Origin: a virus
DNA length: 64,000 nucleotides
Virus record (IMG/VR): IMGVR_UViG_3300035034_002581
Strand: one strand, 5' to 3'
Part shown: in pieces, positions 26,838 through 57,369 of the stretch
Position numbering within the stretch: the stretch's first letter is position 1
Layout: the number at the start of each line of letters is the position of its first letter
Notes under the pieces: model-generated
Databases searched by the model: none
Told to the model about the DNA's origin: nothing
The model's input: only the letters and a program-made list of their open reading frames with translations
Position numbers and translations under genes: made by a program

Positions 26838-26862
26838 TCGTATTCTCCCTTTATTGTATTTG

Positions 26863-27846: not shown

Positions 27847-27899
27847 CCTTTATTCCTCACTAAATATTACAACTTTTGACGTAAATGTTCAAACTATTT

Positions 27900-28070
27900 C
27901 TAGACATCATTCCAGTAGCTATCTGGCTCAGATGACGCTTGCTTAATTACCCTTAGCACCTTCGACCATTCGAAGAATAAGTAGTGTTCACAATTGTCAG
28001 CACCATGAAGATGCTTCTCGGATTGCCACACATTTATGGATTCTAGAGAGTCAATAATATTTTTGGTCAT
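27900..28070 (-). CDS. small hypothetical ORF (56 aa)
   Basis: Manual translation gives MTKNIIDSLESINVWQSEKHLHGADNCEHYLFFEWSKVLRVIKQASSEPDSYWNDV. It lies in an otherwise ORF-poor ~600-bp region. Confidence 0.2.
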   Translation of the reverse strand: MTKNIIDSLESINVWQSEKHLHGADNCEHYLFFEWSKVLRVIKQASSEPDSYWNDV

Positions 28071-28457
28071 TAATCGCTCAAAGCTTTAAGTTGATATGAG
28101 ATGATCTCTGGCTTGCCCTTTAGTTTAAATCGGAACCCTGTGCTCTTTACAATGACAATATCATAAAAGTCAGCTGAGTCTAGTTGGTCTTGGACGAGAC
28201 TGCTATAATCACTGCTAGTGTCTACAAATGAACCTAGGAGTTCACTGCATCAACGCCATTATCGTCTGTCCATGTTGAAATAGCAAGAAATCTCTGTGAA
28301 TTAGACTCAACGAGCTTGATCATTTCTTTATGACGTCCGCTTAGAATTTTGTCAGTCAAGTAGCCGTTTTTATACAAGGCCCTGACAAGAGGTGATGTAA
28401 ATTCTAAGACGAAGTCAATTGTTTTTTATATCTTTTTCTTTGTCGCTTACACATAGT

Positions 28458-29378
28458 TTAGTCCTTCTTTGTGAGTCTTTTAACAAAATTGTACAACCCA
28501 TCCGCTGTATCGTACATTGTCACATTTTCAACATTTTCTAGATCAGCATTAACTGATGTTCTGGGTGATAGTGTATGTACTCCGTGCTTTGCGTATTCTG
28601 TTGCATGCTTTGGTGAATCATCAATAGCACAAACAACCTTTTCGCTCTTGTAGTAATCAGTTCTTGCTAGCCACAAATATTTCTCAGGTGAGAAACTAAT
28701 TCGATGACATTTGATACCACTCTTTTCAAGCCAGGCGTAAGTGTCGTATTTGCATACAAGGAGATCGGCTGGTCGCGCTGTCAATAGATGGATCCAGTAT
28801 CCTTCGTCGTAGAGTTTGTTTATCGTTTCTACGATGCTAATGTTTGTTCTCATTGATTTGAGTCGTCTAGCCTCAATGAACTTCATGTACATTTCTTCTG
28901 TGATTGAGTAGTAAGCAGTTGAATCTTCATCAGGAACGAAGTCAGTATTTGCCTTAACCCATCGTGTGCATTCGTCTTTAAAGGGCGTCAAAACGTCATC
29001 AACATCAACGATGATAACGGGCTGCCCTTCCCACTTGACCTGCTCTTTATTAAAGCGCGTGTTTAGATGCAGATCACGTACACTGAAGGCGTCTTCAAAG
29101 TCATCGTGAGTAATCCCCCACGTGTTTAAGATAGCTAGAAGATACCTGAAGGCGTCGACAGATTCGTGTAAGATTTTGCTAAGCTCTGGACTTTCATCTT
29201 TTGCACGGTGGTGACGATAATTGACGCCATCTAAGATATCGCCAACTTCCTTTTGTAAAGAAGCAGAGAACTGCAACGTAAGTTTCTCTCTATCTTCTTG
29301 AGTTAGATTCTCGTGATCAATAAAGTTCTCGGAAAATCGCTTTTGCTTTAGTAGCATTTCTTTAAAAGTATCTTTCAT
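28458..29378 (-). CDS. MazG-like NTP pyrophosphohydrolase domain fused to HAD-superfamily phosphatase (5'-nucleotidase-like)
   Basis: The N-terminal ~110 aa parallel the standalone MazG-like ORF at 29422 (EVGDILDGV...ILHESVDAFRYLLAIL versus EEVFEALNHL...FLEEWVDAMNYFFSVL). The C-terminal half has PVIIVDVDDVLTP, HAD motif I (DxDx[TV]). Confidence 0.5.
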   Translation of the reverse strand: MKDTFKEMLLKQKRFSENFIDHENLTQEDREKLTLQFSASLQKEVGDILDGVNYRHHRAKDESPELSKILHESVDAFRYLLAILNTWGITHDDFEDAFSVRDLHLNTRFNKEQVKWEGQPVIIVDVDDVLTPFKDECTRWVKANTDFVPDEDSTAYYSITEEMYMKFIEARRLKSMRTNISIVETINKLYDEGYWIHLLTARPADLLVCKYDTYAWLEKSGIKCHRISFSPEKYLWLARTDYYKSEKVVCAIDDSPKHATEYAKHGVHTLSPRTSVNADLENVENVTMYDTADGLYNFVKRLTKKD

Positions 29379-29421
29379 GTAATCCTCTAGTAATTATTAC
29401 ACATTACTAGAGGATGTTCAA

Positions 29422-29838
29422 TTAATAGTCACTTCTAAGTCGCTCATGGATAACTCGATCCTTTTCTACATAGGACTCATATATTTCATGAGGTGTGAAT
29501 CCTGCAAGAATAAGCACAGAGAAGAAGTAATTCATAGCATCTACCCATTCTTCTAGAAACTTGTCACGATCAAAGTCAGGCATTTCTGTCTTGCGATGAG
29601 GTTTCCAGTTCTTTAGATGATTAAGTGCTTCAAAGACCTCTTCTACGCCACGTAGAGAGACGTCTCTTAAGTTCCTCTGTGACTCTTTTGACCTTAAGTC
29701 CAAAGGCCATTCAGACTGTGCTCCGGGTCGATTCCTACTTAAAGCATGCATAAACTCTTCACGAAGTCTAAACATCTCTTCAAACCTGTCAGGGACAGGA
29801 GGCACCGGCATTGGCGCATCTTCATCAAAGCGATCCAT
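29422..29838 (-). CDS. MazG-like all-alpha NTP pyrophosphohydrolase
   Basis: RGVEEVFEALNHL matches ExxExxEA. DKFLEEWVDAMNYF matches the EExxD(x)L second MazG motif. Confidence 0.5.
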   Translation of the reverse strand: MDRFDEDAPMPVPPVPDRFEEMFRLREEFMHALSRNRPGAQSEWPLDLRSKESQRNLRDVSLRGVEEVFEALNHLKNWKPHRKTEMPDFDRDKFLEEWVDAMNYFFSVLILAGFTPHEIYESYVEKDRVIHERLRSDY

Positions 29839-30080
29839 TATTCACTCTCGTTGTCTTCTGATAGCATCTTTGTCTGGTGGTCTTCGACTTCTTGCATCAT
29901 AGAGTTAATTTGCTTTTCAAAAAGCTCCCTATAATCTGCAGTAAGAGCAAGCTTACCATCTTCTGTCGGTTCAACTTCGATCATTCGAATATGATCAATG
30001 ATGTCTGTTCCCGACAAGATCGCGAGTTGCAATGTGTCTCTAAGTTGCCCAATTAGTTCGTCTGCGAAATGATACTTCAT
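29838..30080 (-). CDS. hypothetical protein
   Basis: 80-aa ORF. Its start overlaps the MazG-like stop in an ATGA coupling. Confidence 0.3.
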   Translation of the reverse strand: MKYHFADELIGQLRDTLQLAILSGTDIIDHIRMIEVEPTEDGKLALTADYRELFEKQINSMMQEVEDHQTKMLSEDNESE

Positions 30081-30123
30081 ACTATCTCCTATTTGACTAT
30101 CTTAATTCTTCTGTCTTATTTGT

Positions 30124-30954
30124 TTAAGTTTGAACTGACGGTACCCAATGGGTAGTTCGCTTATCTTTTGTTGTTTCTTTGATTACCTTGTTACCTTCGG
30201 GGTCTTCTTTCTTACCGTAAACTTTTAGCTTAAATTGGAAAGACCCTTCGTTTCCGTTAGGGCTCCTGTAGTTCTTTATAGTGGTTCCACGGTATTTGTA
30301 GCTTGATGACATTACATCACATATGATTTTGCATAAAAGCTCCCACTCCTTATCTGATACATCATAGACAGGACGATTAGGTGATATCTTTGACATATAC
30401 AGCACTTCTGCCTTTATATAATTTCCTACTCCTGCAAAATAACTCTGATTCATTAGTACTTCTGCAATTGTCTTCTTTGTTTGACGCAACTTAGCTTTTG
30501 TAATGAACTTTTTGCTTTGCAATACGCTTTGTCGCAAAGGATCCCAACCAAGACTGTCAAGTTTCTTTTGAAGAGCTTTGGATTCTGAAACATACTTTAG
30601 TGTTCCGAAATTTCGCATATCACAAAACACAAGCGTTGTATTATTGTCAAGTGTGAATCTAGCATGACCATGTTTTGGAAACTCCTCTCCGTCTTTTACA
30701 ATGGACCAGTTTCCTGTCATCCCAAGCGTATTAAAGATGTAAGGTGCATCTTCGAGGAGAAAGTAAATAAACTTACCCTTGGCACGAACAGCTTCAATCA
30801 TAGCTGGAAGAGAAGACTTAAGATCTTCATCACCAAAAGGCTTCTTTTCTCTTGAGTATCTTCCTGATGCGTATTGCACTTTCGTGATTGATCTTCCTTC
30901 TACAAATCGTGAGATTTGATCTACTACGATCGCAACTTCAGGGCCTTCTGGCAT
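30124..30954 (-). CDS. formamidopyrimidine/endonuclease VIII-family DNA glycosylase (Fpg/Nei)
   Basis: The N-terminus MPEGPEV is the hallmark Fpg/Nei motif, with Pro2 as nucleophile and Glu3. The size (276 aa) fits. Confidence 0.75.
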   Translation of the reverse strand: MPEGPEVAIVVDQISRFVEGRSITKVQYASGRYSREKKPFGDEDLKSSLPAMIEAVRAKGKFIYFLLEDAPYIFNTLGMTGNWSIVKDGEEFPKHGHARFTLDNNTTLVFCDMRNFGTLKYVSESKALQKKLDSLGWDPLRQSVLQSKKFITKAKLRQTKKTIAEVLMNQSYFAGVGNYIKAEVLYMSKISPNRPVYDVSDKEWELLCKIICDVMSSSYKYRGTTIKNYRSPNGNEGSFQFKLKVYGKKEDPEGNKVIKETTKDKRTTHWVPSVQT

Positions 30955-30956
30955 TA

Positions 30957-31223
30957 CTACTCCATCTCGTCGTCAAAGCAGTCCATTGTATTCATTGTAA
31001 AAATCGGACCTAGAGAAATTGAATGAATAGGTCCATCGTACCAATCTTCGTGATAGCCGAATGTCCAGTACTTACGTTTTACAAGCAGATGCAGTGTCAT
31101 GTTTTGCTTGTACTTAAAAAAGGGAACTTTAACATTGAGAAAACTAAAGGCTATAAATCCTGCTGTTTGATCAATTATGTGAATCCCTATTTCTGCTTTT
31201 AGCACTTTAAAGGACAGCAGCAT
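30957..31223 (-). CDS. hypothetical protein
   Basis: 88-aa ORF. Confidence 0.25.
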   Translation of the reverse strand: MLLSFKVLKAEIGIHIIDQTAGFIAFSFLNVKVPFFKYKQNMTLHLLVKRKYWTFGYHEDWYDGPIHSISLGPIFTMNTMDCFDDEME

Positions 31224-31587
31224 CTACAGCGTCTTTTTTGATAAGGTGTGAAACAATATCGACAACTACATCAACTTCAAATATTTCATCGACCCTATCA
31301 GCTAAAGGCTTAACTCTATCAGCTAAAGGCTTAACTCTTTCACGTACATCATTCTTTAGTGTCTCCGCAAAGTACGCACGATTAAATTCCTTTGAGTTGA
31401 TAGGCTCCTTGATATCGTGAACGATTCGGAACAGCTCATTGTGAAACTTATTAGATGGGTATATCTTGATGCTGCTCAACCTTTCTCTTAGTGTGTCTCT
31501 ACTAATATCTCTTGCAACGTACTGGTCGACGAGTTCCATTAGTGCATTAATTACTTCGTTATCTACTTTTTTACTCACTGTCTTCAT
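31207..31587 (-). CDS. hypothetical protein carrying an in-frame perfect 21-bp tandem duplication
   Basis: 126 aa. RVKPLADRVKPLADRV is encoded by 2 x ctatcagctaaaggcttaact at ~31295..31336. Confidence 0.35.
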   Translation of the reverse strand: MKTVSKKVDNEVINALMELVDQYVARDISRDTLRERLSSIKIYPSNKFHNELFRIVHDIKEPINSKEFNRAYFAETLKNDVRERVKPLADRVKPLADRVDEIFEVDVVVDIVSHLIKKDAVDAAVL

Positions 31588-31837
31588 CCATTAGCATTAC
31601 TGCCATTGCAGCGTAGTTGTGTAAGTCTATCAGCGTATCACGAAGGCTTTCGTCTTCAACAAGCGAGACACCATTTTTTGTGATAGCAGACATTCTACGA
31701 ATCTTATCACCCATCCTAACCAAGACACCGACAGGACCAAAGTCGGAAAATGCATCTCCGTAGTCCTTGTTCTTTCTTGAAAAGAGTGCAAATGCCTCGT
31801 CTTGGACAGCTCTTAGCTGCTTCTCTCTATCGTTCAT
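31571..31837 (-). CDS. hypothetical protein (possible small all-alpha NTP-PPase-like)
   Basis: 88 aa. EAFALFSRKNKDYGDAFSDFGPVGVLVRMGDKIRR. The similarity is weak. Confidence 0.3.
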   Translation of the reverse strand: MNDREKQLRAVQDEAFALFSRKNKDYGDAFSDFGPVGVLVRMGDKIRRMSAITKNGVSLVEDESLRDTLIDLHNYAAMAVMLMDEDSE

Positions 31838-31838
31838 G

Positions 31839-32311
31839 TCATTCCTCTTTTTGTATGCGGCGTCGCCAATTGACTACTAACGAACCGCTATTCTTTTTGT
31901 ACTGCGAAACGTGCCACTTACCCCACTTTCCTGGATACACCTTCCAGCCTTTTGGAGACTCAATGTCGATGGGTGCGAGTTTCTTAAAGTTAATGTCTGC
32001 ATCATTTGGCTTTCTTGTCGCACGAGAAGAAATAGTCACAATGCCTTGCCACTTAGTCTTAACTGTCGGTATGAAAAACTCTTCACAGTTAGCAAGCGGG
32101 TTATTAGTTACCAGCTTTTTCATATTTCGCTCGATGTATAAGTTCTTATCACACTGATTTCTTCTTCGTATCTATAGATTATGGTTCTATTGTGTGCATA
32201 ACATTTATAAAGCGCTCCTATAGATTCTGTCTTGACAAGTTGTAAAACTAAACAAAAGCCCAGAACTTCATCACATGAGTTTGCATATACTAACGTTCCA
32301 GGCTTAATCAT
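31839..32311 (-). CDS. two small hypothetical ORFs (94 and 63 aa)
   Basis: ORFs 31839..32123 and 32120..32311, packed between neighbouring genes. Confidence 0.25.
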
Positions 32312-32316
32312 TATTG

Positions 32317-33006
32317 TTATGTCCTATTTGCAAATGCCGCGACGGATACTGGCCACAATGTCAATGCAATTGTGTTTAGTGCCTCAGCAACTTTCTGAAT
32401 TTCCCACTGGGCACCTTCATGGGTTCTCAATCTAATAAAATGCATCAAGTTATGCAAATTTACTGTACCATAATATTCTGTATAAAGATTTTGAGGTAAT
32501 ACTCCTCTCGCTTGTTCGCGACAGACTCCTGCGTCAAGCAATTTTTCAAAAAGTGCAAGACTGTGTATATGATGCACGAGGACTGCTTCTGACGCTTTTG
32601 TTTTTATGTTATCGAGTGAAACAATGTCAGGGTCGATCAATTCATTTTCGTTCGATGCCTGTCTGTTAGATTTATGCTGTGTTCTAAACTCTTGTGGTTC
32701 ATAGAACCTCATGTTAATGTCAGTGTATCTTCTACTAATCTCGTTGTATGCCCATGTCCTATGACGATGATGCTGTGATCTAACGTAAAGTGGCACTGTA
32801 AATCTAAATGTTGCTGTGCAGTGCTCGAATGGTGACGTATGATTGTGCTTGGCAAGATAGTTGATAAGCTTTTCATCTTTACTGTCAACTTCTCCTTTTT
32901 GTCCACCAAAAGAAACTCGAGCAGCGTTAACAACGCTTAAGTCAGTGCCCATGTGACTAATAAGTTCTACTTCACCAATTCCGTCTTCGTATAGTTCAAT
33001 CTTCAT
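32317..33006 (-). CDS. thyX: flavin-dependent thymidylate synthase ThyX
   Basis: Canonical RHRTWAYNEISRRY gives RHR-x7-S. The N-terminus has VVNAARVSFG. The length is 229 aa. Confidence 0.85.
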   Translation of the reverse strand: MKIELYEDGIGEVELISHMGTDLSVVNAARVSFGGQKGEVDSKDEKLINYLAKHNHTSPFEHCTATFRFTVPLYVRSQHHRHRTWAYNEISRRYTDINMRFYEPQEFRTQHKSNRQASNENELIDPDIVSLDNIKTKASEAVLVHHIHSLALFEKLLDAGVCREQARGVLPQNLYTEYYGTVNLHNLMHFIRLRTHEGAQWEIQKVAEALNTIALTLWPVSVAAFANRT

Positions 33007-37480: not shown

Positions 37481-38878
37481 TCAATTCTTTTGATTTCTAA
37501 CTTCATTCCACTTCTTCTTCAGCGTGGATTTCATATCTGCTTCATTTTGTTCACTAGCACCGCCGAGGGTTTTCATGTCATTTGGATTTACCACAGTTAT
37601 TCTCGATTGAGCTGTGTCCATTATAACATCAAATAGCAACCCGTCTCGTCCAGCTCTATTTTTAGCAACAAACATTCTACCATGTCCCGTAGATTTTTCA
37701 GACGCCTTTCTCGACAGCGTGATAACAACATCTGCTACCATTGCCTTACCATAAGCTTCAGCCATGTTTTCAAGGCCTACAACATCAGCATTAGCAGCTT
37801 CTCTGTTAGCTTGCGATGCAGTCCAAATTGGTACATTGAGATCTTGTGCAAGGTTTCGTAGCTCTTCATAAATGAGCTTGAGCTCATGTCGCATTGAATC
37901 GTAACGTCGTGTTGATCTCATAATGTCAGCGTAGTCAATCAAGATCAGACTAGGTTTAAAACCCTTCATCATTAGCTTTTCAATGTGTGATCTAAGAGTA
38001 ACAACTGAGGCGTATCCTGTTGGATACTCTTTGATGATCAGGCGTCCGATTTCAAGATTGTCGTACTTTCCTCTAATTTCTTCTTTGTTGTCCTGAACGT
38101 CGTTGCTATCGATTTCGCAAAGGTTAGAATCGTATCTGATTCCTACTGCTGTTTCGGTAAGCTCAAACGTATAGTGTAGAACGTTTTTTCCAGCTCTTAG
38201 TGCTTGTGCACCCATATTTACCAAGAAATGCGACTTACCAACACCTGTAGGCGCTGTAACAACTCCGATTTCACCTCTGCCTAGTCCACCATTTAGCACG
38301 TCTTGTCTGTCAAGTTGTGGAATACCAGTAGGACATGCTTTTCTATCCATCTTAACAAATCGTGCCTCGAAGTCTTCTTTGAAGTCGTGCCCAACTGATG
38401 CTGGGATGCCGACTGCAACAGCTTCTTTCATGATCTTTACAACCTGCTCATGATTTCCTGTCTCAATAAGGTCGACCGCAGATTCTAGCGCCTCTTTCAT
38501 TGCCTGCTTTCTACAGAAAGCAAGTGCCATCTCTTTGACCTTGGGAAGATCTCCATATTCAGGATTAAACTTGATCCTTGTGAGATAATCAATGACTTGA
38601 CCTTGCAAAGCTTTGCTTGTGCCTCTTAGATCTTCCTTGACGACGGATGCAAGTAGTGAAAGTGTTGGGAAGGTTCTGAAGTTTCTGAAGTGCTCAAAGT
38701 ACTTCTCACTTAGATACTGGAGGTACTTGAGTTCAAAGTATTCTGGCTTAGATACTTCTAACATTTGTGCTGCCCAGTCTTTGTCCATTAACAGGGCCTG
38801 GAAGATCTTCTCTTGAAATGGCTTGTCGTAGCGACTGAAATGTGTATTGACTGCTGACACTTGTTGTGTCTCGGACAT
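37481..38878 (-). CDS. DnaB-like replicative helicase (T4 gp41-like)
   Basis: GIPQLDRQDVLNGGLGRGEIGVVTAPTGVGKSHF is the DnaB Walker A and arginine-finger region. The length is 465 aa. Confidence 0.8.
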   Translation of the reverse strand: MSETQQVSAVNTHFSRYDKPFQEKIFQALLMDKDWAAQMLEVSKPEYFELKYLQYLSEKYFEHFRNFRTFPTLSLLASVVKEDLRGTSKALQGQVIDYLTRIKFNPEYGDLPKVKEMALAFCRKQAMKEALESAVDLIETGNHEQVVKIMKEAVAVGIPASVGHDFKEDFEARFVKMDRKACPTGIPQLDRQDVLNGGLGRGEIGVVTAPTGVGKSHFLVNMGAQALRAGKNVLHYTFELTETAVGIRYDSNLCEIDSNDVQDNKEEIRGKYDNLEIGRLIIKEYPTGYASVVTLRSHIEKLMMKGFKPSLILIDYADIMRSTRRYDSMRHELKLIYEELRNLAQDLNVPIWTASQANREAANADVVGLENMAEAYGKAMVADVVITLSRKASEKSTGHGRMFVAKNRAGRDGLLFDVIMDTAQSRITVVNPNDMKTLGGASEQNEADMKSTLKKKWNEVRNQKN

Positions 38879-38887
38879 ATTGACCTC

Positions 38888-39850
38888 TTAGTTAGATTTG
38901 AGTACGAAAGAAAAAGTGAAAAAGAAACGTTCTCCGTCAAAAGTTGTCAATCCACTTTTAACTAATTTTCGTAACAATCCTATTTTATCCCATTTAGGCT
39001 CAAAAGTATTGCAAGTGTGTTCAATCTTTTTAACCTGTCTTCCAGATAGTGATCCAATGTCGAGGTACATAAGTTTCCAATTTCTCCGTGCAACTTCTTC
39101 GCCCTCAGCTATTCGTGTCAATATCTTGGGACTCTTTTCTGTGCATTTTTCTTTAGCTTCTTTAACTATATCGCTAACTGACACATCTTCCAAATTACTT
39201 AGTTGAGGAAATCTTTTGACTAGTGATTTGAAGCCTACACTTTTAATACCAGGCACGTTGTCTGAGGGATCTCCACAAAATGCTTTTGCAGTGCAAAAAT
39301 TGTTAGGATGTATATTGAAACGCTCTAAGACATCTTCAGTCTGAATGTACTTCTTGCTTGTAGGTGAATATATTTTTGTCTTTTTGTCGATGAGTTGATA
39401 AAAATCTTTATCTGATGACAAGATTACTTTTTCCACGTCGTTAAAAGTGTTTTTACACAGATAACCGATCACATCATCAGCTTCACAGTTGTCAACGTAA
39501 ATCTGCTGGACTGGTACATGACGTAGTGTACTGATGATTGTTTCAATCTGCCAGTTTCTGTTGCCTACTGTATTTGGTATATCTTCGTCGTAGAATCTAT
39601 TGAGTTTTTGAGGCCTCCTTTTAGACTTGTAGTCCGGAAATATCTTTCTCTTTCTTTGAGATCCGCCACCCTCCCAGATGACAATGACTCTAGACGGAGT
39701 TGTTGCACTAACTACATTCTGTAGGTTCCTTAAGAATCCAACAAGGCCGCCCGCAGGCTCACCTTTTGAACTCATTGATGGATTTGCAACAAAGTGTCTA
39801 ACAAACAAGTTCATCGCGTCAACTAGGAGGATGGGTCTCTCTTTTTTCAT
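38888..39850 (-). CDS. 5'-3' exonuclease / flap endonuclease (T4 RNase H-like)
   Basis: ILLVDAMNLFVRHF ... EADDVIGYL are the FEN/PIN-domain acidic-cluster motifs. The length is 320 aa. Confidence 0.75.
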   Translation of the reverse strand: MKKERPILLVDAMNLFVRHFVANPSMSSKGEPAGGLVGFLRNLQNVVSATTPSRVIVIWEGGGSQRKRKIFPDYKSKRRPQKLNRFYDEDIPNTVGNRNWQIETIISTLRHVPVQQIYVDNCEADDVIGYLCKNTFNDVEKVILSSDKDFYQLIDKKTKIYSPTSKKYIQTEDVLERFNIHPNNFCTAKAFCGDPSDNVPGIKSVGFKSLVKRFPQLSNLEDVSVSDIVKEAKEKCTEKSPKILTRIAEGEEVARRNWKLMYLDIGSLSGRQVKKIEHTCNTFEPKWDKIGLLRKLVKSGLTTFDGERFFFTFSFVLKSN

Positions 39851-39851
39851 G

Positions 39852-41153
39852 TCAGTCCTCTGGGTTTATATCGTCAACAAGTGCCGTTCCAATTTCATCT
39901 GCAAGTGAAGACATTTCGATGTAAGATTCAGCGTTTATGTCGGGATTACCCTGCATGACTCTTAGCATGACCTTCTGAAGCAGCTTATCAACCCAGGGTG
40001 CTGTTTCTGGATCCCTGATGATCTGGTCGAAGTCTTTCGAATAGAACGGCTTCGAGATGATTGCATTTTCATCTAGCTGTAGCTTCTTAAACTCTTCCTT
40101 TGTCGGCCATTTGTACTTATTTGACTTTTTGTCAAACTTGAAGTCTTCAATGTCAACTTTAGATTTAGGAATGACAATCATCTTCTTCCAAGCACCGGAC
40201 CCACCAAATCCTATAATGTGGTCACCGATTAGATCTGGCCCATGTCCCTTAAGCATCTCATAGATTTGCTCGTGCTCTTTGATGCCGTATCCAAAGTGAA
40301 TCTCAAATTCGACTTTTCTAAAGGGTGGTGCAACCTTGTTCTTAATTGTCTTTGCAAGGACTCTAATGCCTACGATCTCATCGTAATCATTCTTTAGCTT
40401 CTGACCTCCGAGTAATTGAATTCGAACTGAAGAGTGGAAAGGAATAGCTTTTCCTCCCGATGTAGTCGTAGGATCACCATACATTACGCCAATCTTTGTT
40501 CGTGTCTGATTTAAGATTACGAACAGGACGTTGTTGTCGCCAATTGCTCCCGTGATCTTTCTCATACCCTTTGAGATTGTTCTTGCCTGAAGACCGATGG
40601 AGTTGTCGTCATATTCACCATCGAGTTCAGCCTTTGGTGAAGACGCTGCGACAGAGTCCCAGACAATAATAATAGGAACATCCTTCTTCATACTACGTGC
40701 TTTGAGCATTGTTTGTTCAGCAATGCTCATAACATTTTCTGTACAGTGTTCTGACACGTAGACAAACTTGTCAGCTATGTTGACACCTAGCAAGCCGAGG
40801 TTTTCAGGACTTGTAGCATTTTCAGTGTCAATGTATACAGCAAGACCTCCCATCTGTTGGGCACCTCTGCAGATCTGTGCAGCAACGTGTGACTTACCAA
40901 TACTCGGATCACCAAAAATCTCAACAATTCTACCTTCTGGCAGGCCGCCGTTTGGAATGTTTGAAACGATATAGTCAAGAAGCTTACTACCAGTTGAGAT
41001 CCATCGCTTAACATGTGTCGGTGACTGATCAAGTGAAAGGTTGTAGGCAACCATGTCACCGCTTTCTCTGTTTAGATCCTTGATTAGCGAAGACGTAAAG
41101 TCCTTAATGTCGACATCTTCTTGCTCTAGTGCCTTCTTTTTCTTTCTAGCCAT
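39852..41153 (-). CDS. RecA/UvsX-family recombinase
   Basis: [25 protein letters not shown] matches RecA [53 protein letters not shown] matches the RecA L2 region. Confidence 0.8.
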   Translation of the reverse strand: [433 protein letters not shown]

Positions 41154-41189: not shown

Positions 41190-41231
41190 TTAAAAAGTAC
41201 AAGGGGACATGGCATTTTGTGCCATGTCCCC
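41190..41231 (-). terminator. rho-independent terminator downstream of the SSB gene
   Basis: 12-bp perfect stem ggggacatggca/tgccatgtcccc with a 5-nt loop. On the minus strand it is followed by TTGTACTTTTT. Confidence 0.5.
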
Positions 41232-41265
41232 TGATTTCATTTATAGCCTGTCAGTAGAACTGCGA

Positions 41266-42075
41266 TTAGTCTTTCATGAGGGTCTTGAATGCGTCGTCGA
41301 TGTTGGCATGTGCCTCACCTGTGGACTCACTCGAATCGTCATCATCGTCAGAACTGTCGCTGGCGTCAGTCTTTCCAGATCTCTCGGTTCCAGTGTCATC
41401 TTCAGAGTCTTCGTCATCACTGAGCCAATCATTGATAATCTTGGCAAGCACGTCGTAGGACTTAAGCTGATAGATGTCGTCTAGTGATGGAATTTCTTCA
41501 ACCCACTTTTCAACCTGCTCAGCATCACCAGACAACTTAGTCTGCTTTCCTCGAGGAAGGACCTCAGTCTTAGCCCATTGCTGGCCCTCTGGTTTTGTCA
41601 CCTTGATCTTGATATCTCGGCCACTAAGTGGATCTGTAATATCTCCATAATCTTCATCAATCATGATGTTTAGAAGTTGCTGATACACAGTCTTTCCAAA
41701 AGACCATAGACGCGGACCTTCTGACTCTTCGCCTCTGACAATTACTGCAGCATATGCTCTCATCTTAGGGTAGAGCTTCTTTGCAAGTTCGTAAGATTCC
41801 TTAGATCCTGCAGCACCTTCATCGCGAAGCTTCGTAATCAACTCCTGGAAAGGATCAGGCTTGTCGAACTGGTAAGGAGCGAGCAAGCCGCGGTTCTTAC
41901 CAATGTTGTAGTAGAAGTGACGCTCCTTAAAAGGCTGGCCATCATTATCACTGAACGGTAGAATTCGCACAGTGTAGTCAGTGTCAGTATCAGGACGCCA
42001 GAAAGAGTTCTTGCGTCTATTGTTGCCAGAAAGTTGTCCTAGCTTCTTGCGGATTGCTTCAAAATCAACTGCCAT
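41266..42075 (-). CDS. single-stranded DNA-binding protein (T4 gp32-like) with acidic C-terminal tail
   Basis: FWRPDTDTDYTVRILPF resembles the gp32 N-terminal region. The C-terminus is DDEDSEDDTGTERSGKTDASDSSDDDDDSSE. It sits between recombinase and helicase as in T4-like replication modules. Confidence 0.55.
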   Translation of the reverse strand: MAVDFEAIRKKLGQLSGNNRRKNSFWRPDTDTDYTVRILPFSDNDGQPFKERHFYYNIGKNRGLLAPYQFDKPDPFQELITKLRDEGAAGSKESYELAKKLYPKMRAYAAVIVRGEESEGPRLWSFGKTVYQQLLNIMIDEDYGDITDPLSGRDIKIKVTKPEGQQWAKTEVLPRGKQTKLSGDAEQVEKWVEEIPSLDDIYQLKSYDVLAKIINDWLSDDEDSEDDTGTERSGKTDASDSSDDDDDSSESTGEAHANIDDAFKTLMKD

Positions 42076-42211: not shown

Positions 42212-43225
42212 TCATCCATGTGTATATTTAAAGCCCTTAGTTTCGCTACCTTTTTTCTTCCTCTTTCTTCCAAAAGATGGGGTAGCAGCACCGAGAGGTA
42301 AGGTTGCTCCGGCTACTGCACCGGCGCCAGAAAATTCATCGAGATCATCATCGGTTTCTTCTTCTTCATCTTCATCTATTACAGTTTCACGAATAAGAGC
42401 CTGAAGTCTTCTTGACGTGGCTTCTTGTTGTTTGTTTGACTGACTCATAGCGCTCTTTTCTTCGAAGGATTCGCCTATGAATGCGTTAAGTGCACTCTGC
42501 ATTTTTGGAACGAATGGGTGCAACTTTTCGAGCTTTGGATCCTCTTGAATCTCGTCAAAAAGTTTATTGATCATGGATTCATTTCTACGCAGTGTTTCTT
42601 TAGCCATCTTAATTTTTTGAATGACTTTAGGACCGTGTTTAGTTGCTTGCTTAGATGCCTTTGGAAACGTCTTCAGCAACCAGTTGGCGATCTTTCCACC
42701 TTTTCCTAGTACATCACCAATAGCTGGTATCGTAGACACAAGAGAAAATGCTGCTAGAAGATTTTCGCCTTCAACTGCATATGCTATAGCATTTGTAGCG
42801 TCACATGCTGCTCCAACTCCAGCGCCGACACCAGTTAAGTCTGCTGCAATTCCGCAAACATCAAGTGCAAAGTGTGAAATACCTTTCGTAGCATCACTAA
42901 CACTAAGTTCGTGTACAAAAGCTTCACGTATATAGACTCTTAAAAGTGCTTCATCCAAAACAATACTCTTTTTTGGACACCTACAACGCATCATGCTATT
43001 ACAGCCGCATTCTGCCTCTTCGGAGTCTTCTCCCTCACCTGTATAAGTAGGCTCTTGACCGACATTTTGTTGAGAAATTTGACTCATTGTTGTATCAACA
43101 GAAGCAGAGGGTGAGCCTCCAGCTCCTGATAACCAAGCTGATCTCGGTGGATCAAAATTCTTGACTATTGGTTTGCCTAAGGCTTTACCTGGCGAAGCAC
43201 TTCTTGACTCTTTCTTTATACGCAT
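42212..43225 (-). CDS. hypothetical protein with Cys cluster
   Basis: 337 aa with EAECGCNSMMRCRCPKK. Confidence 0.3.
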   Translation of the reverse strand: MRIKKESRSASPGKALGKPIVKNFDPPRSAWLSGAGGSPSASVDTTMSQISQQNVGQEPTYTGEGEDSEEAECGCNSMMRCRCPKKSIVLDEALLRVYIREAFVHELSVSDATKGISHFALDVCGIAADLTGVGAGVGAACDATNAIAYAVEGENLLAAFSLVSTIPAIGDVLGKGGKIANWLLKTFPKASKQATKHGPKVIQKIKMAKETLRRNESMINKLFDEIQEDPKLEKLHPFVPKMQSALNAFIGESFEEKSAMSQSNKQQEATSRRLQALIRETVIDEDEEEETDDDLDEFSGAGAVAGATLPLGAATPSFGRKRKKKGSETKGFKYTHG

Positions 43226-43234
43226 AGTTAGTAA

Positions 43235-43867
43235 CTATCTCATAGCTTTCTCTTCTTGACAAGCATGTCGATCAGCTGTCTGAACTATAAGTGCTAGTGT
43301 CGGTTCATGCATCATGTAGTACCTGTTTTCTTCTGCGATTGGTCCATCATTTGTTCTGATTGCAATCCACTCGTCAAGTGTTAGGTAGACACCAAAATGC
43401 TGCAGCAGCCAAAGTCCTCTTTCTGCATTAGGCATCTTCTGCATGTCGTAGTTAATCTTGTAGAACTCTCCAAGGTTATCTCTTCGCCATTCATTGTCCT
43501 GATATTCGTAGTAGTCATCGGTCAAATCGCCGATCTTTCCGAAATCATGGAAAAGGCATGCCATAATCAAGGATTCAGAGTCTATTTTGTAACCAAATGA
43601 TTTACAGATCTTTTGTGCATTAGCTAAAACTCTAAGTGAGTGATCAACTAGTCCGCCAGGATAAGCAGCATGAAATCTTTCTTTTGATGATGCAGGGCAA
43701 AGCACAAGCCTATCACCAAAATGCTCTAAGAGGTGAAGTAGCTTTTCTGCTCTGTCTGGTTGCTGCTTAATGTTTGTACTTTTACACAGTTTAAGAAATG
43801 TGTTGTAGTTACTTTCAATCTTGTCTTCTTTAAGCATCTTTGACTTCCATGGGAAAGTTGTTGTCAA
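43235..43867 (-). CDS. HD-domain phosphohydrolase
   Basis: MACLFHDFGKIGDL is the HD motif. An upstream His and downstream Asp are consistent with an HD metal site. The length is 210 aa. Confidence 0.6.
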   Translation of the reverse strand: MTTTFPWKSKMLKEDKIESNYNTFLKLCKSTNIKQQPDRAEKLLHLLEHFGDRLVLCPASSKERFHAAYPGGLVDHSLRVLANAQKICKSFGYKIDSESLIMACLFHDFGKIGDLTDDYYEYQDNEWRRDNLGEFYKINYDMQKMPNAERGLWLLQHFGVYLTLDEWIAIRTNDGPIAEENRYYMMHEPTLALIVQTADRHACQEEKAMR

Positions 43868-45056
43868 AACCCTCTATCTGAGTGCCTTGTTGAATTATCT
43901 CATTTAAAGTATATTCATCTACTTCTGGATGTACATCAAGCAGAATTGCATCGTGAATAATCATAATAGGAGCAACTTTGATGCTGTACTTCTGGATGTG
44001 CTTGATTAGCTTATTGAACCCTTGCAATGCTAGATCGACTCCAGTTGACTGAACATGGTAGCTGATGAGTCCCGGGCCGTCACTTCTAGATGGATTCAGG
44101 ATTCTTCCATAATGATTTCTAACAAATCCACACTCGTCATATTCTTTTTTTAGCTTGTATTCCAGGGCACTTACGTTAAAGTGCTCCTTGACTTTTGACA
44201 TTACAACTGATGCGTTAATGGTTGAGCCCAGCATGCTCTGTAGTTTGGTATCACCGATACCATACAAGACGCCCATTACAATGATCTTTGCTTCTTTTCG
44301 TGTTATGTCGACATCTTTCAATGCTGTATTCATGACATGTGTGTATACATCGTCATCAGGTGTTTTTCCAACAAGAGATAGCAGAATTCTGGGCTCAAGT
44401 GAAACATAGTCTGCCTGAAGTATTCTGCCTCCTTCCCATCTGCTTTTGATCATATTTCTGTATTCTTTCTTTAGATGCAAGATTTTTGGTCCCGATTCTA
44501 TTGAAAGCCTTCCTGTTGCGTCACCCTTTTTGTAGACGATGGGTTGTGCAAAACCATCAGCGTCCGGTCTGAAAGATTCTACAGTACTTTTCTGACCGTT
44601 ATCTGATCCATTCTTATTAGCAGACCATAAAGATACGTCAATTGATGCTCTTTTAAGATTCAGAAGGCTGTTTCTAGTGTTTTTAAGCGTTTCAGAATAT
44701 GTTTTAGCATTTTCATCTTCAAAAACTTCCTGTGCTTTCTGGATGACACTCTTGACGTAACCTTTAAAAACATCAGGTGGTAAGATTTTTGACCACGGAA
44801 CATTAATCGGAACTTGATCCATGGTATCAACATCGTATATCTCAAAAAACTGTCTATCCCATTTTCCACCAGGTGAAAGTGAGATCTTTTTTCTCATAGC
44901 TTCACTTAGTGCTGATATTGAGAGAAGACACGACTTATCACCGATAGTCCAGAGATCAGTTTCTGATCTGTTTGACCACGTAAATGTGTTCTCTTGCTGA
45001 TCAACAATGAGATGCTGATCAGTTCCTAGCAATTTTTTATGTATGCAAATTTTCAC
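43830..45056 (-). CDS. family-A DNA polymerase polymerase-domain-only protein (no 3'-5' or 5'-3' exonuclease domain)
   Basis: Motif A is ILQADYVSLEPRIL (compare DYSQIELR). Motif B/O-helix is RKEAKIIVMGVLYGIG (compare RRxAKxxNFGxxYG). Motif C is IMIIHDAILL (compare HDE). It is only 408 aa and its start overlaps the HD gene by 38 nt. Confidence 0.6.
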   Translation of the reverse strand: MKICIHKKLLGTDQHLIVDQQENTFTWSNRSETDLWTIGDKSCLLSISALSEAMRKKISLSPGGKWDRQFFEIYDVDTMDQVPINVPWSKILPPDVFKGYVKSVIQKAQEVFEDENAKTYSETLKNTRNSLLNLKRASIDVSLWSANKNGSDNGQKSTVESFRPDADGFAQPIVYKKGDATGRLSIESGPKILHLKKEYRNMIKSRWEGGRILQADYVSLEPRILLSLVGKTPDDDVYTHVMNTALKDVDITRKEAKIIVMGVLYGIGDTKLQSMLGSTINASVVMSKVKEHFNVSALEYKLKKEYDECGFVRNHYGRILNPSRSDGPGLISYHVQSTGVDLALQGFNKLIKHIQKYSIKVAPIMIIHDAILLDVHPEVDEYTLNEIIQQGTQIEGFDNNFPMEVKDA

Positions 45057-54929: not shown

Positions 54930-55250
54930 TTATGTGAATCTGGTCATTTTAGATGGAACAAACTGTCTGTCCCTTCCCTGCAAATTCCTGAGTTGAGGCG
55001 AATTGTGATGAGCACCTCTCGACTCTCCATTCCCTTCGTCATTTGATTTTGCAAATTCCTTGTTGATTCTACGTATAAACCAAAGACGATAAGAAATCGG
55101 AAGTTTTCGCGCTTCACTGTATGAGAATCCGCCATAGTACATCAATACAAAGCAGTGCTCAAGTGTGTTCTCTCTATACGCGCTGCTATTTTCAGGAGTC
55201 AGGCCAAAAAAACTTGGCCCCAAGGGGCATGTTAACCTCCTGTTGTTCAC
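54930..55250 (-). CDS. +1-frame ORF overlapping the 3' end of the upstream 280-aa ORF (candidate frameshift extension, tail assembly chaperone-like arrangement)
   Basis: It overlaps 55192..56034 by 59 nt. It is in the +1 frame relative to that ORF, and the overlap contains an A/T7 tract at ~55206..55212. Confidence 0.3.
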   Translation of the reverse strand: MNNRRLTCPLGPSFFGLTPENSSAYRENTLEHCFVLMYYGGFSYSEARKLPISYRLWFIRRINKEFAKSNDEGNGESRGAHHNSPQLRNLQGRDRQFVPSKMTRFT

Positions 55251-56034
55251 CGCATGCTGGGCACTCCGTCCATCCCTTCATGTCAATTCCAGGCTCGTTT
55301 TCTTCCATGAACTTTCTCAAAGCACGACTGTCACTAGCAGGCATGTTTCGAATGAATATGTTGATCTTGTTAGGATCTGAAATACCACCAACAGAGATTA
55401 TTGCTCTTCTAAGTCGCCCTGTTACTAATGTGTCTTTTGCAAAGCGCATCGTTTTTCTTCTACGATCTGCCTCTTGTAGAAGATCGTTTTCATCAGCACC
55501 TGTCAAGAACTTAAATAGGACGTTGTGTCCTGAACGTGGTAGCTTGAACTCAAATTCATTCTTGCCTTCTTCTGTAGGGTCAATTTTGAGTTTCTTAATA
55601 GGAAGCGCTGACAAATCGAACTCTGCTTCTACACCTTCACCACAACTACCACATGTAATTGATGCTTCGTATTCGCTCCCGTACCCTGTGATTCTATGTG
55701 CAACCATTATTGCGTTTCGATCTCCAGACAAGAGCGCGTCTGGAGAGACACCTGGCGATAAAATGCAAGATCTAAGAAGTTCTGTAATAACAGTGCCCTT
55801 CTTGATTAGCGCTCTTGATGTCAGGATGTCTTCTTGAACAGCAGTCATTGCAGATATTTCTACAGAATGCTTACCATAAAGTGGGCTATCTACTCCGTAA
55901 ACCCTTCCTTCTGATGGTAGTGGTGCTAGATCAACTGGAACGTCAATTCCGAAGTCGTCTTTCATTACATCACGCCTTGTAATACCATCGGATCGATCTC
56001 TACCGAAAACTTCGTTCTTTCTATCTTCTGACAA
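55192..56034 (-). CDS. tail assembly chaperone-like protein (zero-frame product)
   Basis: 280 aa with CGSCGEG...CPACGEQ zinc-ribbon-like Cys pairs. It is located between tube and tape measure. Confidence 0.35.
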   Translation of the reverse strand: MSEDRKNEVFGRDRSDGITRRDVMKDDFGIDVPVDLAPLPSEGRVYGVDSPLYGKHSVEISAMTAVQEDILTSRALIKKGTVITELLRSCILSPGVSPDALLSGDRNAIMVAHRITGYGSEYEASITCGSCGEGVEAEFDLSALPIKKLKIDPTEEGKNEFEFKLPRSGHNVLFKFLTGADENDLLQEADRRRKTMRFAKDTLVTGRLRRAIISVGGISDPNKINIFIRNMPASDSRALRKFMEENEPGIDMKGWTECPACGEQQEVNMPLGAKFFWPDS

Positions 56035-56880: not shown

Positions 56881-57369
56881 TTAGTACTGTAGGACTGCGT
56901 TATCAAATCGAAGTGTCAAAGTTATGTCTGAAATGTCGTTGCTTTCGTAATCTAAATCACCAAAGTTAATTGATGTTGGGAAAGCACCCTTAATGTCCCA
57001 GAGTTCAACAACAGTACCAACGGGATCTAGCATTTTAAGCTGGACATCGCGCTTGTAGAAATCTGCATATCCACCACGTGCGGATACAGATTCATAGATT
57101 AATCTTAGCCATTCCATAACCTGCTGAGCACCTGATGGTGCGATTGGGTCATGAAGTGTAATGTCAATTGTTTCGAACTTCGTTTTGCCTGCAAGGTAAC
57201 GCGTCGCATTAATGTATCCAATCTCAACTTCATCAGTTGAAATCGATGGTCTTGCAGCAATTTTCATCATGTAAGAATCGACTCCTTCAATTTGAAAAAC
57301 CCATCTAAACTTGCGCTTTGCTTCAAACTTGTTGGGTAACATGTCTGTTACGGAAAGTGTCTCTGCCAT
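56881..57369 (-). CDS. tail tube protein (T4 gp19-like)
   Basis: 162 aa. FEAKRKFRWVFQIEG is the typical gp19-family N-terminal motif. It is immediately downstream of the sheath genes. Confidence 0.65.
   Translation of the reverse strand: MAETLSVTDMLPNKFEAKRKFRWVFQIEGVDSYMMKIAARPSISTDEVEIGYINATRYLAGKTKFETIDITLHDPIAPSGAQQVMEWLRLIYESVSARGGYADFYKRDVQLKMLDPVGTVVELWDIKGAFPTSINFGDLDYESNDISDITLTLRFDNAVLQY

Follow-up and report, generated by a model that had tools for sequence, protein, structure and literature searches.

A stand-alone family-A DNA polymerase without exonuclease domains in the replication module of DnaE-encoding phages

Introduction

Bacterial DnaE-based replication relies on DNA polymerase I (Pol I), through its polymerase and 5'-nuclease activities, for the maturation of Okazaki fragments. 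What does a phage that encodes a DnaE-type polymerase do with a family-A polymerase that has no exonuclease domain? The question is raised by a 64-kb stretch of viral DNA (IMG/VR record IMGVR_UViG_3300035034_002581; hereafter the window), in which a preliminary description had recognized a minimal Pol A, a separate flap endonuclease (FEN) and a DnaE-type replicase and had suggested that the first two are a split Pol I.

Results

A family-A polymerase domain

The polymerase, which we call PolA-min, and the two parts of its product are encoded as follows.

43830..45056, minus strand: PolA-min, a stand-alone, exonuclease-less family-A DNA polymerase of 408 aa with a GTG start
44709..45056, minus strand: family-specific N-terminal region of PolA-min (aa 1-116), in which helices connect a small beta-rich module to the thumb
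43887..44708, minus strand: polymerase core of PolA-min (aa 117-390), with the second half of the thumb, the palm and trimmed fingers

The product is identical to, and as long as, database protein P0001 (408 aa), and the motifs that the preliminary description had listed for this ORF, DYVSLEPR (A), RKEAKIIVMGVLYGIG (B) and IIHDA (C), were all found in its translation. PF00476 (DNA_pol_A) matched residues 177-390 over profile positions 114-355 of 381 with 45.4 bits (cut-off 34.3), and PHROG 17 matched with an E-value of 2.6e-24. Profile alignment to the PDB paired residues 117-381 with positions 260-554 of the Bst chain, the matches including Pol theta and Pol nu, and hhalign against E. coli Pol I aligned only residues 172-385, to 656-897 (Prob 98.5). 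The AF2 model (pLDDT 94.2) predicts a right-hand fold of thumb, palm and fingers. Foldseek matched it to Klenow, Bst and Taq at E-values of about 1e-13 (TMq 0.6-0.7), and all top matches were Pol I-type structures with a probability of 1.00. Judged by profile, motifs and modelled fold, PolA-min is a member of the family-A DNA polymerases.

PolA-min is not a canonical bacterial Pol I. The NCBIfam model TIGR00593 scored 19.2 bits (cut-off 600) and PRK05755 19.8 bits (cut-off 720), and the NCBIfam Pol I models overall gave 19-26 bits against cut-offs of 389-720; we rejected this identity on these equivalog scores and on the nuclease and exonuclease domains missing from the same polypeptide. We also rejected the 'RTasPolA' of DRT defence (PADLOC PDLC03816), a model that matched at 51.7 bits, no better than a generic PolA match. 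The window contains no RT gene, nor do 88 syntenic loci, in which structural and replication genes surround the polymerase.

An N-terminus too short for an exonuclease domain

Searches with Pfam, PHROGs, NCBIfam and PDB profiles found neither a 3'-5' nor a 5'-3' exonuclease domain in PolA-min, in agreement with the preliminary description. The latter had considered that a degenerate exonuclease fold might lie at the N-terminus and make the protein an ordinary Pol I, a possibility for which the N-terminus proved too short. About 60-116 residues stand before the alignable thumb, and no Asp or Glu is conserved among residues 1-47 (conservation is seen at G11, W36 and W88), so that no room is left for such a domain. 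Residues 1-116 gave no Pfam, PDB or hhalign match and contain no exonuclease motifs; the AF2 model places strands at 2-5, 15-19, 24-28 and 36-38. This region keeps its length and sequence throughout the family. Residues 1-45 might be what is left of the exonuclease domain's first beta-strands, an idea prompted by the Foldseek alignment of the model, which spans the whole Bst large fragment. Pfam or PHROG scans of approximately 55 ORFs of the window detected no separate DnaQ or PolA-exonuclease gene.

Conservation of the active site

The active-site residues of PolA-min correspond to those of E. coli Pol I as follows.

T181-G182-R183: TGR motif; R183 is R668 of E. coli Pol I
D216/E221: motif A; D705/E710
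R253/K257/M261/Y265: motif B; R754/K758/F762/Y766
Q336: Q849
H368-D369-A370: motif C; H881-D882-E883

Counted over 206 family members, the equivalents of R668, D705, E710 (the steric gate), K758 and Q849 were present in 206/206 and that of D882 (D369) in 205/206. All template and primer contacts that we tested in PolA-min were canonical, and so was the steric-gate Glu. These counts indicate that the active site of the family is under purifying selection; they speak against a catalytically dead protein, an outcome that the preliminary description had envisaged, and we infer that PolA-min is an active polymerase.

Other positions have changed. The equivalent of E883 is Ala in 186/206 members, position B3 of motif B (F762) is Leu in 97, Ile in 88 and Met in 19 of the 206 and Tyr in none, and the equivalent of R841 is not conserved. 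The lost E883 carboxylate is what would favour a dead enzyme or structural relic. To judge from the structures of T7 RNAP and Pol I, two Asp residues should suffice for catalysis. We found no kinetic data on E883A in the literature, and a search of relatives that lack the HD gene (see below) for a regained Glu in motif C found none. Pol I-type enzymes conserve this Glu, and its replacement by Ala could make PolA-min less active or change its activity.

A large phage-only subfamily

A word-indexed protein search returned 71 homologs of PolA-min; at E<=1e-30 we found 654 representative clusters (50% identity), and relatives occur at no fewer than 463 IMG/VR loci, numbers that place the gene far beyond chance. 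Among the best 150 of the 654 clusters nearly all matches were full-length (approximately 385-430 aa), with a few shorter fragments. The 46 family members that we aligned were all picked from matches already listed with a PF00476 annotation. A search of 185,579 species genomes gave 2 matches only, both on short MAG contigs. PolA-min defines a large, phage-only subfamily of which we found no description in the literature, and it is confined to one lineage of uncultured, contractile-tailed phages of aquatic environments, whose contigs measure about 90-360 kb. For isolated phages, blastn gave no match and tblastn gave no more than a 24-26% identical match with mycobacteriophage Pol I, over the C-terminal 62%; the DnaE of the window was at most 29% identical to those of isolates, and the 936-aa protein encoded just upstream of PolA-min had no match among them. 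The 'moraphage' lineage (PMC12619734) was rejected as the PolA-min group, those being PolB phages.

A syntenic replication module

The neighbours of PolA-min, and the DnaE gene, are as follows.

43235..43837, minus strand: 200-aa YhaM-like HD-domain protein with an ATG start that overlaps the PolA-min stop codon by 8 nt, ATGCTTAA
42212..43225, minus strand: unannotated 337-aa ORF between the HD and SSB genes, with no Pfam, PHROG or PADLOC match
41266..42075, minus strand: gp32-like single-stranded DNA-binding protein (PF08804, E 1e-10; PHROG 1192)
39852..41153, minus strand: RecA/UvsX-like recombinase (PF00154, E 5.6e-62; PHROG 97)
38888..39850, minus strand: Pol I-type 5'-3' exonuclease/flap endonuclease (FEN), a separate polypeptide (PF02739 and PF01367)
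37481..38878, minus strand: DnaB-type replicative helicase (PF03796, E 3.7e-23)
19688..23272, minus strand: DnaE-type Pol III alpha, the presumed replicase (PHP, DNA_pol3_alpha, finger and HHH_6 domains)

As far as each of them extends, 88/88 loci have the order structural genes, PolA, HD, gp32, RecA, FEN, DnaB and RNR, in some cases followed by ClpP. The 936-aa protein has no Pfam or PHROG match and is conserved beside tail and baseplate genes, and homologs of the 337-aa ORF occur in many related loci with partial conservation. The overlap of the PolA and HD genes noted previously is real; its length of 38 nt applies only to the longest, TTG-start ORF and becomes 8 nt with the ATG at 43837, from which the HD product is 200 aa and identical to database protein P0072. 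The preliminary description had proposed looking for the same gene pair in related phages, and there the PolA–HD order is kept. HD directly follows in 47 of 83 loci, small ORFs intervene in the other 36, and HD is lost in 3 loci, in which PolA-min is unchanged.

A proposed accessory polymerase for a DnaE replisome

The DnaE assignment at 19688..23254 stood as to its PHP, Pol3 alpha, finger and HHH domains, with the start corrected to 23272, and PF02739 and PF01367 confirmed the separate FEN, whose best PDB match is the 5'-nuclease of Taq Pol I (E 3e-17). Relatives of this DnaE lie on the same contigs as PolA-min and are 55-62% identical to it; on 8 contigs that carry both polymerase genes, DnaE is 55-60% identical to the window's copy and PolA-min only 30-38%. 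Because it diverges faster than DnaE, we consider PolA-min accessory rather than replicative. We see about an even chance that PolA-min is an active, DNA-specific, non-proofreading enzyme serving as the accessory Pol I-like polymerase of a DnaE replisome. Pol I of Taq and Bst has its role in Okazaki-fragment maturation without proofreading.

According to this model, the strongly conserved DnaE presumably replicates the phage genome and the removal of primers and flaps would fall to the separate FEN of Pol I type. PolA-min would fill the short gaps at Okazaki-fragment junctions and also those at recombination or repair intermediates, and the YhaM-like HD protein, translationally coupled to PolA-min, may act on 3' ends. 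Since the PolA-min and FEN genes are not adjacent, it is only their common module that suggests a partnership. The proposal of a minimal Pol A working with FEN and DnaE held as to a stand-alone protein, intact catalytic residues and a combination conserved across the lineage. Its 'split' origin found no support: FEN lies four genes away, on the side opposite to that of the 5'-nuclease in Pol I, and no exonuclease gene adjoins PolA-min. We saw no ligase, primase or clamp gene in the 64-kb window, and the replisome composition given here is incomplete to that extent.

The missing primase is one of the points in favour of a different role, that of a primase-polymerase which, like CCPol of staphylococcal SCCmec, primes with a small partner protein. 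Among published enzymes it is CCPol that comes closest, as a PolA whose exonuclease region is truncated (PMC10201439), and an ORF of 82-83 aa lies between PolA and HD in some relatives. However, this small ORF is missing from the window and from the 47 loci in which HD directly follows PolA-min, and a primase may be encoded elsewhere, the window being part of a genome. The MP gene and Cch2 helicase that mark a CCPol–MP system were not found beside the polymerase, which HD directly follows. We regard a priming role as very unlikely.

An HD neighbour that resembles YhaM

The preliminary description had called the neighbour an HD dNTP hydrolase. The HD domain was borne out (PF01966, E 7.7e-10), the hydrolase label was not: the nearest counterpart of the protein in structure and sequence is the HD domain of YhaM, a 3'-5' exonuclease, and not DatZ, SAMHD1, dGTPases or YfbR. 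It has the YhaM-type HD-domain fold with H...HD metal ligands. In YhaM/Cbf1 of B. subtilis and S. aureus (PDB 9h3f and 9o7t; PMC12107432) an OB fold is joined to the HD domain, whereas all 200 aa of the phage protein are HD domain and the N-terminal OB-fold is missing; the YhaM equivalog model NF010007 scored 21.2 bits against a cut-off of 460. Comparison of sequence and structure suggests that the protein resembles a DNA-trimming nuclease rather than a nucleotide hydrolase, and a DatZ-type (YfbR-like) HD dATPase was rejected as its identity.

The resemblance to YhaM raises the possibility that PolA-min and the HD protein form a polymerase/3'-exonuclease pair in which the nuclease edits or trims in trans for the lost DnaQ-like domain. 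We consider such a pair doubtful. Together with FEN, such a pair would spread the three activities of Pol I over three polypeptides, one of them by non-orthologous replacement, which seems to us similarly improbable, as does the fuller version in which a coupled, OB-less HD nuclease has replaced the DnaQ-type domain and docks on the beta-rich N-terminus of PolA-min. Because the whole region is syntenic, the adjacency of the two genes is weak evidence of specific coupling. Further points against the pair are the small ORFs in 36/83 loci, the 3 loci with PolA-min and no HD, and the HD homologs without an adjacent PolA in phages immuto, Dp-1 and Saumur. In addition, the protein lacks the OB domain by which YhaM binds its substrate, and similarity of the HD fold does not fix the substrate.

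Nucleotide-metabolism genes and a possible specialised polymerase

PolA-min could instead be a specialised polymerase for lesion bypass, D-loop extension during recombination-dependent replication or a modified nucleotide poorly handled by the host Pol I, a reading that we hold to be unlikely. Consistent with it are the lack of proofreading, as in Pol theta and Pol nu, the fast divergence relative to DnaE, the family-specific changes at E883 and B3 and the location just upstream of the SSB–recombinase (gp32/UvsX) pair. The window also contains many genes of nucleotide-modification type: a divergent second ThyX-like gene, DUF1599/Nmad1, NDT, two MazG-like genes, dCMP deaminase, TK and Fpg. Owing to this unusually rich set, we keep a 'modified-DNA' role in consideration. 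Against specialisation, Pol theta-like insertions are absent, the steric gate and all tested template and primer contacts are canonical, and any genome-wide modification would have to be handled by DnaE anyway.

One version of this idea, a 2-aminoadenine (Z) genome, failed its test. It arose from the co-occurrence of an adenylosuccinate-synthetase (AdSS) homolog, NDT, the MazG-like genes, HD and PolA in the window, a superficial resemblance to the DpoZ–DatZ–PurZ cluster, which likewise has a phage PolA near an HD protein in a genome with an AdSS homolog, NDT and MazG-like genes. In PurZ a Ser replaces the Asp of the PurA catalytic loop (bioRxiv 10.1101/2025.10.22.683976). The loop of the window's homolog reads AWGDEGKGK, with Asp; NCBIfam scored it at 105.7 bits for PurZ (cut-off 300) and higher, at 232.9, for PurA, and its PDB matches were better for PurA (E 8e-49) than for PurZ (E 8e-18). 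With a PurA-type AdSS homolog and an HD protein that is not DatZ-like, we rejected the DpoZ/DatZ/PurZ system, and with it the modified-nucleotide polymerase of the preliminary description in its Z-genome form only; a base modification other than Z is still compatible with these data. That PolA-min is a dead or structural relic, or else one half of a DpoZ/DatZ-type system, we regard as extremely improbable. The reading that we prefer is still that of an accessory gap-filling polymerase.

Discussion

Published surveys of family-A polymerases, which distinguish 19 clusters, contain only two exonuclease-less forms, a T7-like gene fission and the rare CCPol (PMC10201439). The PolA-min family would be a third, far larger and older: proteins of about 400 aa, with HDA as motif C and an aliphatic residue at B3, that abound in aquatic viromes and are in every case found with a DnaE-based replisome. 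It offers a natural test of how small a family-A polymerase can be, and it bears on whether the third carboxylate is dispensable and on how phage DnaE replisomes complete lagging-strand synthesis. If the YhaM-like HD protein does edit 3' ends for PolA-min, this would be a new solution to proofreading. A polymerase this compact may also be of biotechnological interest.

PolA-min shares its fold with Klenow, the Bst large fragment and Klentaq, and its TGR motif can be aligned with theirs position by position, as can motifs A, B, 6 and C. Like Pol I it keeps the steric-gate Glu, and like the Taq and Bst enzymes it has no proofreading; a Pol I-type 5'-nuclease is encoded alongside it. Unlike Pol I, it has no 5'-nuclease and no exonuclease domain, not even a vestigial one, with a mere 60 or so additional residues left at the N-terminus, its fingers are about 30 residues shorter, E883 has become Ala in most members (186/206), F762 has become Leu, Ile or Met, R841 is unconserved, and the family is phage-only.

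In the split T7-like PolA of phage S-SBP1 the polymerase domain is likewise a phage gene of its own. There, a recent fission by frameshift has left the exonuclease gene directly upstream; the polymerase serves as the replicase and has Tyr at B3 (PMC10201439). PolA-min has no adjoining exonuclease gene, an aliphatic B3 and a DnaE in the same phage, and its architecture is common to all members seen over hundreds of divergent clusters. We rejected an S-SBP1-type split, given that the upstream 936-aa protein is not exonuclease-like by Pfam or PHROG and that B3 is never Tyr.

CCPol, too, is a family-A enzyme that has lost most of its exonuclease domain and is left with a short N-terminal stretch. 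It is carried on a bacterial mobile element, retains three exonuclease helices, works with a separately encoded partner, the small beta-barrel protein MP, and also binds the Cch2 helicase (PMC10201439). Compared by description only, PolA-min differs in its predicted beta-rich N-terminus, its HD neighbour and its place in a phage DnaE replication module, and the homology established between PolA-min and CCPol is that of the common PolA fold.

An exonuclease-less family-A polymerase

The open reading frame claimed for the minimal polymerase (PolA-min) exists, and its product contains the motifs quoted for it:

43830..45056, minus strand: PolA-min, 408 aa, GTG start

A metagenomic protein on a 92-kb contig (P0001) has the same sequence and length. 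Residues 177-390 match Pfam DNA_pol_A at 45.4 bits (cut-off 34.3), and the protein matches PHROG 17 'DNA polymerase' (E 2.6e-24). Profile searches of Pfam, PHROGs, NCBIfam and the PDB found no exonuclease domain, bearing out the preliminary description. Residues 130-390 also match the PADLOC profile 'RTasPolA' of DRT defence systems (475 positions) at 51.7 bits, which suggests another short PolA-like class in reverse-transcriptase defence systems.

An AlphaFold2 model of PolA-min, built from a 46-sequence family alignment (A1), had a mean pLDDT of 94.2. Its top Foldseek matches in the PDB were exclusively Pol I-type enzymes: Klenow, Bst, Taq, Aquifex, mycobacterial Pol1 and the apicoplast polymerase (E ~1e-13, TMq 0.6-0.7). 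By family profile, residues 117-381 align to chain positions 260-554 of the Bst large fragment, from the second half of the thumb through the end of the palm. Alignment by hhalign of residues 172-385 with E. coli Pol I 656-897 (locus L170; probability 98.5%) fixed the residue equivalences.

Residues of PolA-min and their E. coli Pol I equivalents (hhalign)
R183: R668
D216: D705
E221: E710, steric gate
R253: R754
K257: K758
M261: F762, motif B position B3
Y265: Y766
R318: R821, not R841
Q336: Q849
H368-D369-A370 (HDA, motif C): H881-D882-E883

The R841 position is Pro in the window's PolA-min and mostly His across the family. Residue counts from one aligned landmark to the next put the fingers ~30 residues short of those of Klenow.

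A DnaQ-type exonuclease domain requires roughly 170-200 residues and three acidic motifs. Only about 60-116 residues lie ahead of the alignable thumb of PolA-min, and in the model four short beta-strands make up the first ~45. Residues 1-47 contain no conserved Asp or Glu column in the family alignment; conservation in the N-terminus falls on G11, W36 and W88. Because the N-terminus is too short and lacks conserved acidic residues, PolA-min has no DnaQ-type exonuclease, not even of the vestigial Taq or Bst kind, and the degenerate N-terminal fold considered in the preliminary description is absent. Foldseek alignments to Bst cover the whole 577-residue target, hinting that the N-terminal strands may overlie the beginning of that enzyme's vestigial exonuclease domain.

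Active-site conservation in a phage-only family

A word-indexed search returned 71 PolA-min relatives, nearly all of 396-411 aa. When 1.84 billion cluster representatives were searched by profile, 654 clusters reached E<=1e-30; the top 150 were nearly all full-length matches of ~385-430 aa, with a few shorter fragments. IMG/VR holds at least 463 relatives. By comparison, 185,579 species-representative genomes yielded only two matches, both on MAG contigs of 4-6 kb, and no full-length relative was found among deposited phage genomes. On these counts, the family is large, phage-only and uncultured.

Across 206 family members, R183, D216, E221, K257 and Q336 are each invariant (206/206), and D369 (205/206) and H368 (198/206) are nearly so. 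Two positions are family-specific: B3, which is Leu in 97, Ile in 88 and Met in 19, and the E883 equivalent, where 186 members have Ala and just 2 have Glu. Judged from sequence, this pattern fits an active enzyme under purifying selection. The essential invariance of catalytic and substrate-contact residues argues against a dead relic, the catalytic loss that had been raised as a possibility. Loss of the third carboxylate (E883) appears compatible with catalysis, since the metals in Pol I-type structures are bound by D705 and D882 and 'HDS' suffices for T7 RNA polymerase to work, but it may alter catalysis.

The replication module and its relatives

Two further enzymes attributed to the window were confirmed:

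19688..23272: DnaE-type Pol III alpha
38888..39850: separate 5'-3' exonuclease (FEN)

The window further encodes DnaB, class I RNR, ClpP, ThyX, RecA/UvsX and a gp32-like SSB. We collected 88 loci, 8 through exact-protein look-ups and 80 through IMG/VR, and searched them locally with HMMs and phmmer. As far as each locus reaches, all 88 share one gene order: three tail/baseplate-side genes (~1000, ~98 and ~950 aa), PolA-min, HD, a variable ORF, gp32-like SSB, RecA, FEN, DnaB, RNR and ClpP. This order is kept on contigs of up to 359 kb and with polymerases only 27-30% identical to that of the window.

The gene pair noted in the window recurs in related phages, with HD downstream of PolA-min in 83 of 86 informative loci; in 47 of these 83 the two genes overlap or are directly adjacent, and in the others small ORFs spanning 0.3-1.8 kb lie between them. 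Three loci (L049, L070 and L086) have no HD gene between PolA-min and gp32 and still encode a 399-aa polymerase with HDA unchanged, so at least one sub-lineage can dispense with the HD partner.

Scanning with the window's DnaE turned up relatives at 55-62% identity. Eight of their contigs also carry PolA-min, and on these DnaE is 55-60% identical whereas PolA-min is 30-38% identical, a contrast that marks DnaE as slow to evolve and presumably the replicative enzyme, and PolA-min as an accessory one that evolves faster.

Several other features of these regions were observed. A bidirectional terminator-like site, the sole strong one in the replication module, separates the RecA gene from that of gp32 (41202..41232); it is a perfect, GC-rich hairpin of 13-14 bp that has T-runs on both strands. 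Directly downstream of HD, a 337-aa ORF without a family match (42212..43225, minus strand) combines a Cys-rich stretch (CGCNSMMRCRCPKK) with a hydrophobic, Gly/Ala-rich middle and a C-terminus that is acidic; in many relatives a partial homolog sits at this position. In nine relatives (L140, L144, L145, L157, L160, L161, L166, L167 and L169) the match to DnaE covers ~4.8-5.3 kb rather than 3.5 kb, one RNR carries Hint/intein domains (L005/L006, 18102..20594), and RecA is in two pieces with inserted DNA in L005, L035, L050, L052 and L059. The replication genes of this lineage seem to have been repeatedly invaded by inteins or homing elements.

Elsewhere in the window, two adjacent, very long tail-sheath paralogs (58146..61136 and 61173..63869, minus strand; 996 and 898 aa) have sheath domains confined to the C-terminal third of each; further along the same strand are a gp19-like tail tube gene (56881..57369) and a T4-type baseplate protein (55192..56034). 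Auxiliary metabolic genes (4306..4725 and 8836..9585, minus strand; 13072..14112 and 25066..26148, minus strand) encode pterin-4a-carbinolamine dehydratase, Fe/Mn superoxide dismutase (C-terminal domain match) and two NAD-dependent sugar epimerase/dehydratases.

The HD neighbour resembles YhaM

The overlap described between HD and PolA-min stands at a reduced size: it reaches 38 nt only from a TTG start, whereas a start at the ATG at 43837 leaves an overlap of 8 nt (ATGCTTAA) with the polymerase stop codon and gives a 200-aa product identical to the database protein P0072. The HD family is large, with at least 459 matches, and tightly conserved (35 invariant positions). The sole significant Foldseek PDB match of its AF2 model (pLDDT 96.1) was the YhaM cryo-EM structure 9h3f (E 1.8e-4, TM 0.65/0.62), as against TM <=0.43 for SAMHD1, YfbR-like 1xx7 and HDDC2. 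YhaM/Cbf1 was also the best PDB sequence match of the family profile (E 2.3e-4), aligning over the 'PAxS..H...GGL..H' segment and the HD dyad. Weak NCBIfam/PADLOC matches were to YhaM, Cas3 HD and MobH relaxase HD domains, all nucleic-acid-acting. By fold and sequence the protein is not a dNTPase-type HD, and its earlier label of dNTP hydrolase is not supported.

YhaM is a hexameric, Mn-dependent, ssDNA-specific 3'-deoxyribonuclease whose N-terminal OB domain binds the substrate (PMC12107432); the phage protein, by contrast, is an HD domain alone. Its co-occurrence and coupling with PolA-min, together with the specific match of its predicted fold to a 3'-exonuclease, are suggestive of 3'-end trimming or editing supplied in trans for the polymerase, a case weakened by the missing OB domain, the HD-less relatives and the syntenic background. 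More distant homologs in other phages lie in replication/recombination modules and have no PolA neighbour, as in Dp-1 (beside clamp loader, UvsX and resolvase genes) and Saumur (beside a resolvase); Immuto carries one amid mostly unannotated genes. The HD protein therefore has its own setting in DNA metabolism.

Nucleotide metabolism

The preliminary description also offered a modified-nucleotide polymerase. The window's nucleotide genes resemble the sets reported for 2-aminoadenine phages (PMC12884076; bioRxiv 10.1101/2025.10.22.683976) and include an adenylosuccinate-synthetase (AdSS) homolog:

18004..19110: AdSS homolog, next to a GMP-reductase/IMPDH-like gene

We tested ALTERNATIVES and rejected the Z-genome reading, because the homolog has a PurA-type loop (AWGDEGKGK), with Asp at the PurZ Ser14 position, and matches PurA better than PurZ, both in the PDB (E 8e-49 versus 8e-18 and 2.6e-8) and by model score (233 versus 106 bits; PurZ cut-off 300). 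A base modification other than Z is possible.

The AdSS homolog is shortened (368 aa, lacking ~55 residues of bacterial PurA), retains a PurA-type P-loop and scores below both model cut-offs. With the adjoining 337-aa GMP-reductase/IMPDH-like gene it spans 16990..19110 (minus strand), just downstream of DnaE, and the two look like a phage GMP -> IMP -> adenylosuccinate shunt from G to A nucleotides. A dense nucleotide-metabolism block (26394..33006, minus strand, plus 10796..11200, 12504..13079 and 14136..15059) hints at DNA base modification. It includes DUF1599/Nmad1 ('nucleotide modification associated domain 1'), a nucleoside 2-deoxyribosyltransferase, dCMP deaminase, thymidine kinase and a thymidylate-kinase-like protein. 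Also part of the block are two MazG-like pyrophosphohydrolases, of which one is fused to a polynucleotide-kinase/HAD-like domain, and, besides a normal ThyX, a divergent 327-aa ThyX-like protein below the thyX cut-off. A complete Fpg/Nei-type DNA glycosylase (30124..30954, minus strand) with N-terminal, H2TH and zinc-finger domains, to our knowledge uncommon among phage genes, may be relevant to repair or modified bases.

A proposed role for PolA-min and comparison with known enzymes

Collectively, the observation of an exonuclease-less PolA was confirmed and its interpretation supported in part. We infer, as the best-supported reading, that PolA-min is an accessory gap-filling polymerase beside FEN. 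In the phage's DnaE replisome PolA-min, as a non-proofreading, DNA-specific enzyme, would close gaps left at Okazaki junctions and in recombination or repair intermediates. Removal of primers and flaps would fall to the Pol I-type FEN, a separate polypeptide that matches the Taq 5'-nuclease best in the PDB (E 3e-17). The proposed split Pol I is best read as a functional division of tasks and not as a demonstrated gene fission: FEN is four genes away from PolA-min, on the side opposite to the one where Pol I carries its 5'-nuclease.

The PolA subfamily represented by PolA-min is large, lacks an exonuclease and has HDA as its motif C; we did not find it described in the literature. Two forms without an exonuclease appear in a survey of family-A polymerases: the split T7-like enzymes, which have Tyr at B3 and an exonuclease gene directly upstream, and CCPol–MP of SCCmec, which retains three exonuclease helices, works with a small partner and can prime (PMC10201439). 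The PolA-min family differs from both, matching the features of neither.
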